Shown piece by piece: positions 1,909 to 45,440 of a stretch of DNA of 64,000 bases (its first letter is position 1; every line of letters starts with the position of its first letter). A program made the position numbers and the translations under genes. The stretch lies in the sequence record SRR20825015_191; one strand, 5' to 3'. The notes under the pieces are model-generated. The model worked only from the letters and a program-made list of their open reading frames with translations, was not told the origin of the DNA and did not search any database.

Positions 1909-2586
1909 ATGAGTGAGCCCATGCCTCGTGAGAAAATGCAGATGCTGATTAAGCTGACCGTCCTTGGAGTCATCATCGTGATGGCCGCGATTTTCGCGCT
2001 CAGTGGGGTGGACCTCAAGGCGCTCCTTGAGCAGGGAATTGAGATCGTGCGCGAGGCGGGTCCGACGACCTTCTTCGTGGCACTGGCTCTGCTGCCGGCG
2101 GTGGGATGTCCGCTCACCGTATTTACGCTACCCGCCGGCTCGGTGTTTGCGCCGGAATTGGGCATGCCTTTGGTGCTGCTTTTGGTCTGCCTGAGTATCG
2201 GGGTGAACTTGGCTATTTCGTATTGGCTTTCACGCCACTTATTCCGGCCTTGGCTGATTAAGCTCTTGGCTTGGTTGGGTTACAAATTGCCGGAGGTCTC
2301 GGCGCAGAATCACCGAGTCATGGTCTTTTTGATCAGAGTAACTCCCGGCCCTCCCTATGTATTGCAGAGCTATATCCTTGGTTTGGCAGGAATCCCCTTT
2401 GTTACGTATTTTTATATTTCTTGGGTCATCTCTTCACTATACGCTTGTGCTTTCGTTTTGTTTGGCGATGCGCTTATGCATGGCCGAGGCAAGATGGCCT
2501 TGATGGCGATAGGCTTGTTCATCGTATTAACGGTGGGAGTGCAATTGATACGACGTCGCTATGCCGATAAGCAGATCAAGCCATGA
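1909..2586 (+). CDS. TVP38/TMEM64 (DedA/VTT domain) membrane protein
   Basis: Hydrophobic protein with LIRVTPGPPY..SYILG motif; start placed at ATG 1909. Confidence 0.8.
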   Translation: MSEPMPREKMQMLIKLTVLGVIIVMAAIFALSGVDLKALLEQGIEIVREAGPTTFFVALALLPAVGCPLTVFTLPAGSVFAPELGMPLVLLLVCLSIGVNLAISYWLSRHLFRPWLIKLLAWLGYKLPEVSAQNHRVMVFLIRVTPGPPYVLQSYILGLAGIPFVTYFYISWVISSLYACAFVLFGDALMHGRGKMALMAIGLFIVLTVGVQLIRRRYADKQIKP

Positions 2587-44508: not shown

Positions 44509-44796
44509 TTAGGCGCTGCGACGTGCGTCCGTCTCCCAAGCCCGAAAATAGTAGTCGTGGATCTGGGTTTCGAGCTCTCGGCGGGACAGGGTGCTTTGAA
44601 GGCCAGTGGGGTTACCATTGGCCAACACGTAGGACCAGCGCACTGGGGCACCTTGGCCAGCGGGGAGTTGCACGATGTATCCGGCCGGGACGGGAGATTC
44701 GTCCACGCACACCTCGAGTTGGAGGTGGGAATCGGACCACACCGGTGCTGTGCTTCCGGGGAAACGGAAGCGCAGACTACGATGCAGTGAGCTCAT
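44509..44796 (-). CDS. Hypothetical protein, 95 aa
   Basis: MSSLHRSLRFRFPG...; its ATG overlaps the upstream TGA (ATGA); followed by a terminator. Confidence 0.7.
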   Translation of the reverse strand: MSSLHRSLRFRFPGSTAPVWSDSHLQLEVCVDESPVPAGYIVQLPAGQGAPVRWSYVLANGNPTGLQSTLSRRELETQIHDYYFRAWETDARRSA

Positions 44797-45050
44797 GCGG
44801 CGGCGGCTTTCCGTTCGTTGGCATTCGCCGCCTTGGCGGCTTCGCTCGCTAGATGCGTGAAGAACGAATCGCGTCGTTCCCGGGCCACTTCGAGATCCTT
44901 GGTGCCAAGCGAGCGACGGATGCGCTCCTTGGTGTAAGGAGTCGGGTGGATCGTGTAGTGAAGGAACCACGTTCCGTGGTTGTTCCACAGGTGGTGATTA
45001 GGGTTGTCCGCACGAACGCGGATTCCGGGGAGGTTATTGATGGTTGTCAT
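44793..45050 (-). CDS. Small protein, 85 aa, resembling an integrase N-terminal (arm-type) DNA-binding domain
   Basis: NPNHHLWNNHGTWFLHYTIH...ERIRRSLGTKDLEVARERRD; three-strand plus helix pattern with RRSLGT.D...A motif. Confidence 0.7.
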   Translation of the reverse strand: MTTINNLPGIRVRADNPNHHLWNNHGTWFLHYTIHPTPYTKERIRRSLGTKDLEVARERRDSFFTHLASEAAKAANANERKAAAA

Positions 45051-45099
45051 GATGCGTGATGGTCTGTGGTTGCAGGTTCGCGCATCAGGGATCGAAAAC

Positions 45100-45130
45100 A
45101 AAAAACCGACCTGAAATGCATCAGATCGGT
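45100..45130 (-). terminator. Leader (riboswitch expression platform) terminator
   Basis: ACCGATCTGA-TGCATT-TCAGGTCGGT followed by a T-run, about 50 nt upstream of the ATG at 45050. Confidence 0.85.
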
Positions 45131-45139
45131 ATCGTCTTC

Positions 45140-45270
45140 GGGAGCGTTACTGGTTCGTCCCTCAGGAGAGAAACGCACATCCGAATCCCCACAGGCGGGA
45201 CTCGATCCACCGTGGCCGCTCCCGGCCCGGTTGGCGGAATCGGTTCTGAGGCCGACTCGTTCCTGATGCA
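45140..45270 (-). promoter_or_regulatory. SAM-I/IV-like riboswitch aptamer
   Basis: P1 UGCAUC/GAUGUG; P2 GAGUCGG/CCGAUUC; P3 core CCAACC...GGUGG; P4 GAGUCCC/GGGAUUC; P5 CGUUUCUC/GAGGGACG; L3 GGGAGC pairs with 3' tail GCUCCC (PK-2). Confidence 0.75.
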
Positions 45271-45440
45271 GGCCATAAACTGGAGTATATGACGTAGTTT
45301 AGTCCAGTTATTTTTGTCTTAAATTGTAATTAATCTGACCTGTATCATTTAACAATAGGGTAAGATGCTCAATGACAATAAGAAAGGGGATTGTCGGAGT
45401 GGAATTAATCGCTCAATTGCCATTGAACTGAACCCATTCT

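Follow-up and report, generated by a model that had tools for sequence, protein, structure and literature searches.

The window analysed here is a stretch of 64,000 nucleotides (record SRR20825015_191), in which a structured leader precedes two small genes, P0001 and P0002, on the minus strand (Table 1). Further upstream, a gene pair encoding a HigB-like toxin and an HTH antitoxin (47966-47375, minus strand) precedes a heparinase II/III-like gene (47330-45441), and a gene for a Gfo/Idh/MocA oxidoreductase (44438-43158) follows the target genes. The leader, 191 nt long, folds better than 200 of 200 shuffled sequences (z -3.65). A sequence-only reading of this DNA had proposed a terminator/antiterminator switch built on four complementarities, each of which is present in the minus-strand sequence at the coordinates that it gave. 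The switching-strand match UGCAUCAGG (45270-45262) pairs with UCUGAUGCA (45125-45117) by eight Watson-Crick pairs and one G-U pair. The remaining elements on this strand are GAUGUG (45181-45176), the third complement CCCUGAUGCG (45090-45081), and two mutually complementary hexamers, CCUCAG in loop L2 (45251-45246) and CUGAGG in P5 (45165-45160). A terminator scan returned a 10-pair stem (45130-45105) followed by UUUUUGUUUU. The heptamer CUGAUGC is not over-represented in the window (13 copies seen, 10.7 expected); within the 211 nt behind the 5' strand, dinucleotide shuffling produced two copies in 0 of 20,000 trials and at least one copy in 242 of 20,000.

Table 1. Coordinates of the leader elements, target genes and upstream sites in the window
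Feature	Position	Strand	Evidence
TATGACA-like motif TAAGACA (one mismatch), upstream of the -35 box	45315..45321	-
Inferred promoter: -35 TGGACT 45306-45301, -10 CAGTTT 45282-45277	45277..45306	-	conserved in homologs
Inverted near-copy CGTCATA	45294-45288	-
Switching strand A1, GCAUCAGG: P1 5' strand and J1/2	45262..45269	-	identical in 164/169 leaders
J1/2 part of A1: A9, G10, G11 (SAM-I numbering)	within 45262..45269	-
P2 hairpin, uninterrupted, without kink-turn; loop L2 45251-45244	45237..45258	-	covariation
P3 with SAM pocket CC-AA-CC / GG-U-GG; loop L3 GGGAGC 45223-45218	45207..45234	-	Rfam alignment, pocket counts
P4 hairpin	45182..45204	-	folding and covariation
B1: P1 3' strand GAUGU	45177..45181	-
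P5 hairpin	45156..45175	-	4/4 basal pairs change on both sides (alignment A4)
PK-2 3' strand CGCUCCCG; partner L3	45139..45146	-	at least 5 bp in 167/169 leaders
Intrinsic terminator: stem 45130-45105, U-tract 45104-45095	45095..45130	-	detected in 159/169 leaders; arms covary
B2: A1 complement in terminator 5' arm and loop (antiterminator partner)	45117..45125	-
B3: third complement CCCUGAUGCG(CGA); partner A1 or start region	45078..45090	-
A2: start region UCACGCAUC-AUG, mimic of A1	45048..45059	-
P0001, target gene, 85 aa, small and unstudied	44793..45050	-
P0002, 95 aa, overlaps P0001 stop, coupled to the target gene	44509..44796	-

Homologs were gathered through the downstream 85-amino-acid protein and with sequence patterns. 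The loci used comprised 80 of the 221 from genomes and 80 of the 585 from metagenomes, together with 30 loci and 40 regions from a 401-genome sample of the phylum in which 69 genomes matched, and nearly all named loci belong to Opitutaceae or other Verrucomicrobiota. Among 232 gene copies, including that of the window, 186 carry the aptamer by pattern, 10 are cut off upstream and 36 have none by pattern; this last group includes L119, which scores 31.8 bits with the SAM-I/IV model (RF01725), and L045, which has a gap of Ns. The set contains 170 distinct leaders, 169 without L047 and 168 when L132, for which the wrong start codon had been picked, is also set aside; the homologs are akin, so all counts overstate the number of independent events.

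A promoter scan of the window with an E. coli-type consensus found none. Across the Opitutaceae loci L001-L080, a consensus that this type of scan missed lies 40-10 nt before the aptamer, with (C)TGGAC or CTCGAC as the -35 box, CAnnnT as the -10 box and an A-tract in front. A pyrimidine precedes the first G in 166 of 168 leaders and, together with the promoter spacing in the homologs, indicates that transcription probably starts at G45269, with the pyrimidine at -1. With such a start the U45270-A45117 pair may be absent from the RNA, which would leave an antiterminator of 8 bp.

Architecture and class of the aptamer

At gathering thresholds, Rfam models found nothing in the whole window. Positions 45274-45140 gave a full-model match to RF01725 at 30.5 bits (E 0.0064), below the 41.1-bit gathering cut-off. 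That cut-off serves annotation, and the long P4 and P5 count as inserts in the score. None of 20 close homologs reached this cut-off, and the distant homolog L123 passes it at 44.9 bits. At E <= 0.05, the leader was the only RF01725 match in each of five genomes searched, so standard annotation, with the family below the cut-off, misses the only SAM-I/IV match in each of them. A search with the SAM-I model (RF00162) matched in 0 of 5 genomes (150 candidates scored per genome).

The P2 helix consists of seven contiguous pairs, is 98% paired and has no internal-loop split; five of its seven pairs change on both sides in alignment A1, and all seven do in alignment A4. P4, P5 and the terminator likewise covary across the leaders. 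The pseudoknot PK-2, between L3 and the 3' tail, shifts in sequence among clades with its pairing kept, and in a swap test the native partner beat the swapped one in 28 of 28 types. PK-1 is absent: J3/4 is two bases long, and the only proposed partner of L2, in P5, is not conserved.

That L2-P5 partner came from the sequence-only reading, which had suggested an extra alternative pairing there, and it did not survive comparison. The hexamers CCUCAG and CUGAGG occur together in 1 of 168 leaders, namely the window's; such a 6-mer pairing arises in 1,308 of 20,000 shuffles, and some 6-bp self-complement in 1,819 of 2,000 shuffled aptamers, which places the match within chance. On alignment A1 the helix is 55.8% paired (5.8% for the outer two pairs), less than the 64-70% of slid controls. 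The native partner won the swap test in 74 of 142 types (z -2.5, 68 of 10,000 permutations), and the covariation score exceeded all 500 shuffles yet was equalled by a slid control. Relatedness can produce such a residual signal; a contact of 3-4 bp may exist. Both strands of CUGAGG are already engaged in P5, and we reject L2-P5 as a conserved helix.

The pocket residues A6 U7 C8, G11 A12, C44 A45 A46 C47 and U57 G58 are exact in 163 of 168 leaders, and two of the five exceptions change P1 on both sides. Two further pairs of the leader we take to be 42:60 and 43:59 in SAM-I numbering. All residues of the shared SAM pocket listed in PMC6890682 (SAM-I positions 6-8, 11-12, 44-47, 57-59 and 87) are kept in the window, except that residue 59 is a G paired with C43. 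The flipped C43-G59 pair is also found in Rfam's present consensus, and the 43:59 pair covaries, being G:C in 3 of 168 leaders.

Judged by its predicted structure, the leader is a SAM-I/IV riboswitch, though below the annotation cut-off. A structure of a member of this class, env87, was reportedly described by Trausch et al. in 2014. As outlined in PMC2864571 (Weinberg et al. 2010, SAM-I-IV-variant) and PMC6890682, SAM-I/IV RNAs share with the leader P1-P5, an uninterrupted P2, P4, PK-2, the absence of PK-1 and the pocket. The leader differs from the family in its sub-cut-off Rfam score, in C43-G59 with G-A beneath it, in A13, in switching through the P1 5' strand and J1/2 rather than PK-2 with two serial complements, and in having a mini-protein rather than a methionine enzyme as its target. 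Two related classes were rejected. SAM-I (RF00162) has a kink-turn P2 and PK-1 and lacks P5 and PK-2, whereas the P2 of the leader is uninterrupted and P5 and PK-2 are present; SAM-IV (RF00634), according to PMC6890682, lacks P4 and has a split P2a/P2b and PK-1, whereas the leader has P4 and a single P2.

Some related RNAs were seen along the way. A second SAM-I/IV-like RNA (L082:1-126, minus strand, 35.7 bits) lies at a contig end of genome G001, whose best RF01725 match it is, and its gene falls off the contig. In L105 (G056:C1, about 2213990-2214180), P1 carries the compensatory change GAAUC/GAUUC, and J1/2 reads ACUA in place of AGGA; the same genome also carries a canonical copy (L141) beside this paralogous leader, which from its sequence is a candidate for altered ligand specificity. 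In L013, a TPP riboswitch (2312-2425, minus strand; 55.3 bits) lies divergently to the SAM leader.

The switching strand and its two complements

The terminator was detected in 159 of 169 leaders by a rule that overlooked those of L013, L127 and L132, although the eye picks them out, and a complement of A1 of at least 7 bp lies inside the terminator in 156 of 169. Terminator stems differ among clades, with CUGAUG(C) kept, including loop positions that have no role in the hairpin, and in the swap test of the arms the native partner was better in 34 of 34 types. On alignment A4, 99.3% of A1:B2 cells pair and no pair changes on both sides; A1 is invariant, so this is conservation and not covariation. 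A G+C-rich hairpin, a U-tract and a mutually exclusive antiterminator, which together mark an intrinsic attenuator, are all present, with P1 and the terminator excluding the 5'-strand antiterminator. The earlier claim of a real transcriptional attenuator is thereby supported. Three leaders (L104, L105 and L141) have no clean B2 and B3.

It had further been claimed that the 5' strand forms a longer helix with the terminator than with GAUGUG in P1. By itself this longer helix does not make the switch. When B2 has just been transcribed, all 156 of 156 leaders favour A1:B2 over P1 (mean -10.1 kcal/mol, window -8.6 kcal/mol). Once the stem is complete, however, the P1 state wins by a mean of 2.2 kcal/mol (window 2.5 kcal/mol). 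Stepwise equilibrium folding of the window gave the succession of P1 (to about 45125), A1:B2 (at 45117-45112) and terminator (at 45105); the full terminator has a probability of 1.00 at equilibrium with or without a bonus of -4 kcal/mol on P1, and A1:B2 at its emergence step stays at 1.00 even with that bonus. Since the finished terminator always wins at equilibrium, read-through must be kinetic, which is the usual mode of control for such switches (PMC10907184). These folds contain no pseudoknot, PK-2 included, and do not respond to the P1 bonus, so the model requires SAM to protect P1 more than they capture, through tertiary contacts or kinetics. What emerges first of B2 is complementary to A9-G10-G11 of J1/2; as G11 belongs to the pocket (PMC6890682), a bound ligand should hide this toehold. 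The conserved pairings, energies and helix covariation support the proposal that the ligand turns the gene off, and we regard SAM-dependent transcription termination as a highly probable first tier of control.

The third complement had been noted as lying after the terminator; its presence was confirmed, and its part had been under-read, as it appears to be an arm of a conserved hairpin that hides the AUG and not a spare copy. B3 lies 15-45 nt before the AUG, and in 163 of 168 leaders it matches A1 at no fewer than 7 of 8 positions (among shuffled regions, 23.5% reach 7 of 8 pairs including G-U and 1.5% reach 8 of 8). The start region CGCAUCAUG is one base off CGCAUCAGG, the commonest 5' end of the leaders, and B3 can therefore also close a hairpin over the start region that includes the A of the AUG. 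In a swap test of B3:A2 the native duplex beat the swapped one in 101 of 115 types (z -7.8, 0 of 10,000 permutations), against z -0.4 for a control on the coding region. From the 168 leaders, 48 distinct rows were picked for diversity and aligned by sequence only; there the B3:A2 hairpin is 84% paired and seven of its nine pairs change on both sides, above 500 of 500 shuffles and all slid controls. Distant leaders such as L107, L108, L111, L123, L140 and L146 rebuild the hairpin with new sequence, and in L111 A1 and B3 have changed together (GCAUCACG / CGUGGUGU). The two middle pairs vary and are broken in 37 and 28 of 78 close homologs, but 130 of 131 leaders of the common type keep one or both. 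The hairpin also recurs before unrelated genes (L368, L392 and L398).

With A1:B3 forced, the start region is more open than with P1 forced in 159 of 163 leaders (0.72 vs 0.34); in L388, A1:B3 does not open it. For the full mRNA of the window, A1:B3 has a probability of 0.95 without ligand, and a P1 bonus of -4 kcal/mol shifts the ensemble to P1 (0.85) and B3:A2 (0.86). As just 6 of 168 leaders carry a Shine-Dalgarno-like word at -20 to -4, what is occluded would be the start region itself. The 5' flank GAAGAC pairs with the U-tract in 109 of 168 leaders, and this pairing would help the terminator hairpin to re-form after read-through, which would free A1 for B3. Together these results make start-codon occlusion a likely second tier.

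Alternatively, the leader could be a transcription-only attenuator, with B3 merely capturing A1 after read-through and B3:A2 incidental or constitutive. Such a design would agree with the presence of the first tier in most leaders (156 of 169), with the failure of RNAalifold to find any consensus pair on the same 48-row B3-to-AUG alignment, and with the weakness of the start hairpin in many Opitutaceae (-6.7 to -8.9 kcal/mol in several). We consider it unlikely, because B3:A2 covaries, because A2 has drifted mainly where its B3 partner was already lost, because little energy separates the two full-length states (mean -3.0 kcal/mol), and because B3:A2 is kept where no terminator was detected: in L106, L107, L108, L111 and L140, B3 still matches at 8 of 8 positions. 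The converse, that the switch is translational and the terminator largely constitutive or leaky, setting a basal level and releasing a short aptamer RNA with B2 as a duplicated relic of B3, is also unlikely. The finished terminator does win at equilibrium in both conditions (by a mean of +2.2 kcal/mol against A1:B2), and B3 is kept more widely than B2 (163 of 168 vs 156 of 169). Against it, CUGAUG(C) is retained in terminators whose stems have otherwise changed, loop positions included, and 99.3% of cells pair with A1.

Probable ligand and proposed mode of action

The ligand was approached through a pattern search for the same aptamer over the 401 genomes, in which many matches were chance occurrences in coding DNA. 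Of 11 loci picked by eye, five lie before metK, one before a gene for an SsuA-family sulfonate-binding protein, four before uncharacterised genes and one before the mini-gene of the P0001 type; four of the metK loci were scanned, and all exceeded the TIGR01034 cut-off. From the family match, the intact pocket and this metK context, SAM is very probably the ligand. A variant of the SAM-I/IV fold that senses another ligand (e.g. SAH or a SAM analogue) or acts through a protein is very unlikely. It would account for the departures from the 2010 consensus of PMC2864571 (C43-G59 instead of R-Y, G-A below it in 137 of 168 leaders, and A13), for a target gene that is not a methionine enzyme and for the sub-threshold Rfam score, but the flipped pair is in the current consensus and covaries, the remaining listed pocket residues are retained, and the same aptamer type precedes metK.

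In loci L381-L385, where this aptamer type stands directly before metK, P5 is followed immediately by a purine-rich stretch and the start codon; in the L381 leader neither a terminator nor B3 was seen, so the switch there is of another design. Genome G266 (L238, about 1710-2100) has the riboswitch, the mini-gene and then a metK-like frame that overlaps the mini-gene stop codon and holds one TGA inside the match.

Taking both tiers together, we favour with moderate confidence a mechanism in which SAM leads to termination and to start-codon occlusion through one switching strand, the eight bases of A1, for which B1, B2 and B3 are three different possible partners. The aptamer would fold first. 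As the 5' arm of the terminator emerges, its (U/C)CU would meet A9-G10-G11 of J1/2 as a toehold, after which GAUGC would displace the 3' strand of P1; the A1:B2 helix covers the upper terminator stem and loop, and polymerase would thus read through. Bound SAM would hold P1 and bury G11, so that the toehold would be lost, the terminator would form and transcription would stop near 45097. In read-through RNA, the terminator hairpin would re-form and A1 would move to B3, leaving the start region open until later binding of SAM returned A1 to P1, whereupon B3 would pair with the start region and hide the AUG. According to PMC8525861, PK-2 is reported to be the regulatory element of env87, its stabilisation being required for regulation, and PK-2 is conserved across the leaders, but that PK-2 itself is the switch and the A1 complements are secondary is the least probable reading, because its 3' strand (45146-45139) overlaps neither the terminator stem, B2, B3 nor the start region and so cannot itself exclude any of them. 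More likely, PK-2 helps SAM to hold P1.

The proposed two-tier switch resembles several known systems in part. In S-box attenuators (RF00162, e.g. Bacillus subtilis yitJ), P1 stabilised by SAM is an anti-antiterminator, SAM likewise leads to termination and the antiterminator uses the 3' strand of P1; the leader, unlike these, has no kink-turn or PK-1, and its antiterminator takes the P1 5' strand. Strand exchange with dual output is described for a TPP riboswitch (translation and Rho; PMC10907184) and for the c-di-GMP riboswitch Bc1 (PMC11218506), and dual transcription-translation control for the S. meliloti SAM-II riboswitches of metZ and metA (PMC9373788). Like the dual-output strand-exchange riboswitches, the leader would begin strand exchange from its first helix at a toehold, control termination kinetically and act at both levels. 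It would differ in that both tiers are RNA-only and act in the same direction, with one strand facing two successive copies of its complement, and in that its second tier covers the AUG region of leaders that, in 162 of 168 cases, contain no Shine-Dalgarno-like word.

A literature search, with subscription papers mostly outside its reach, found no description of this expression platform or of the TATGACA motif treated below; an Opitutaceae member could be listed in the supplement of PMC2864571. SAM-I/IV riboswitches are known mostly as aptamers, and the present family adds about 170 full-length leaders from nature whose expression platform can be read. They come in three forms: some combine terminator and start hairpin, some have only the start hairpin, and those of metK have neither. 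The link from ligand binding to output is therefore directly testable, and a toehold that includes a ligand-contacting base makes for a sharp prediction.

The target protein and the TATGACA motif

P0001 has 1,089 relatives of similar length and 871 cluster representatives, and its predicted model has three strands and a long helix (pLDDT 75.9). Integrase arm-type DNA-binding domains (the lambda Int N-terminal domain, Arm-DNA-bind and DUF6538) likewise combine a three-stranded sheet with a helix. P0001 scores 20.9 bits against DUF6538 (cut-off 27), and the weak match recurs in 117 of 144 relatives; its nearest named Atlas clusters are arm domains (0.89-0.90). The VIA search gave Z scores of 4.0-4.3, tied with unrelated folds, a Foldseek search returned no match at E 0.001, and a PDB sequence search yielded a single match (E 2.1). 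P0001 differs from the arm domains in being a stand-alone 85-aa protein, and all matches lie below curated or significance thresholds; the links are consistent, and the modelled protein weakly resembles an integrase arm domain. P0002 had no Pfam match, and a homolog of it is present in 35 of 233 loci, the genes further downstream varying.

Exact TATGACA occurs at -70 to -42 in 48 of 160 homologous leaders, against 0 of 160 in a control window. It lies upstream of the -35 box in L017, L103, L109, L123, L127 and L140, sometimes with an inverted copy near the -10 box, and is also found before serA in many Opitutaceae and before some riboswitch-less paralogs (L138, L142, L143 and L112). The motif may be an operator of the target protein. 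Genomes G062, G239 and G332 have sites close to ilvB, ilvN, a leuA-like gene, serA, a gene for a Cys/Met PLP enzyme, cysK, gltB, an anthranilate phosphoribosyltransferase-family gene and a sulfite/nitrite reductase gene, as well as near many unrelated genes and inside coding DNA. The motif is not over-represented genome-wide in G062 or G056.

The core of the serA site was found in 12 of 20 genomes with the protein and in 0 of 12 where the protein was not found, a comparison among related and possibly incomplete genomes in which one search had no positive control. Equivalent comparisons found no conservation before leuA-like genes (1 of 15 with the protein vs 0 of 12), before metK (4 of 18 vs 1 of 12, where the single site is in a genome in which the protein was not found) or before lrp (1 of 16 vs 0 of 12), and, at the threshold applied, none of 29 other genomes yielded a close ortholog of the Cys/Met enzyme of G062. 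Lrp/AsnC is disfavoured as the binder of the serA site, as it is present in 12 of 12 site-negative genomes and was not found in four site-positive ones.

A relay in SAM starvation is a tentative and rather doubtful proposal: low SAM would open both tiers, and the integrase-arm-like protein so made would bind TATGACA upstream of the -35 box. The proposed sites, at its own promoter and at serA, cysK, the Cys/Met PLP enzyme gene, ilvB, ilvN, gltB and sulfite reductase, are known beyond serA from single genomes, and the failure of the leuA-like, metK and lrp comparisons makes the relay a lead. Were it true, a single riboswitch would govern a regulon by way of a new kind of one-domain transcription factor that feeds back positively, and reading of TATGACA by the target protein would explain how a SAM signal passes to amino-acid and sulfur genes in abundant uncultured Verrucomicrobiota.

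Paralogs of the mini-gene also occur apart from the riboswitch. In L133-L136, such paralogs lie directly behind a gene with a leuB-like 3' end, as judged by eye. A conserved clade of aptamer-less mini-proteins of 74-75 aa (L114, L116-L118, L120-L122, L124, L126, L128-L131 and L147-L152) is encoded mostly right behind a ribosomal protein L28-like gene, again by eye, and L129 has two copies of the mini-gene in tandem.
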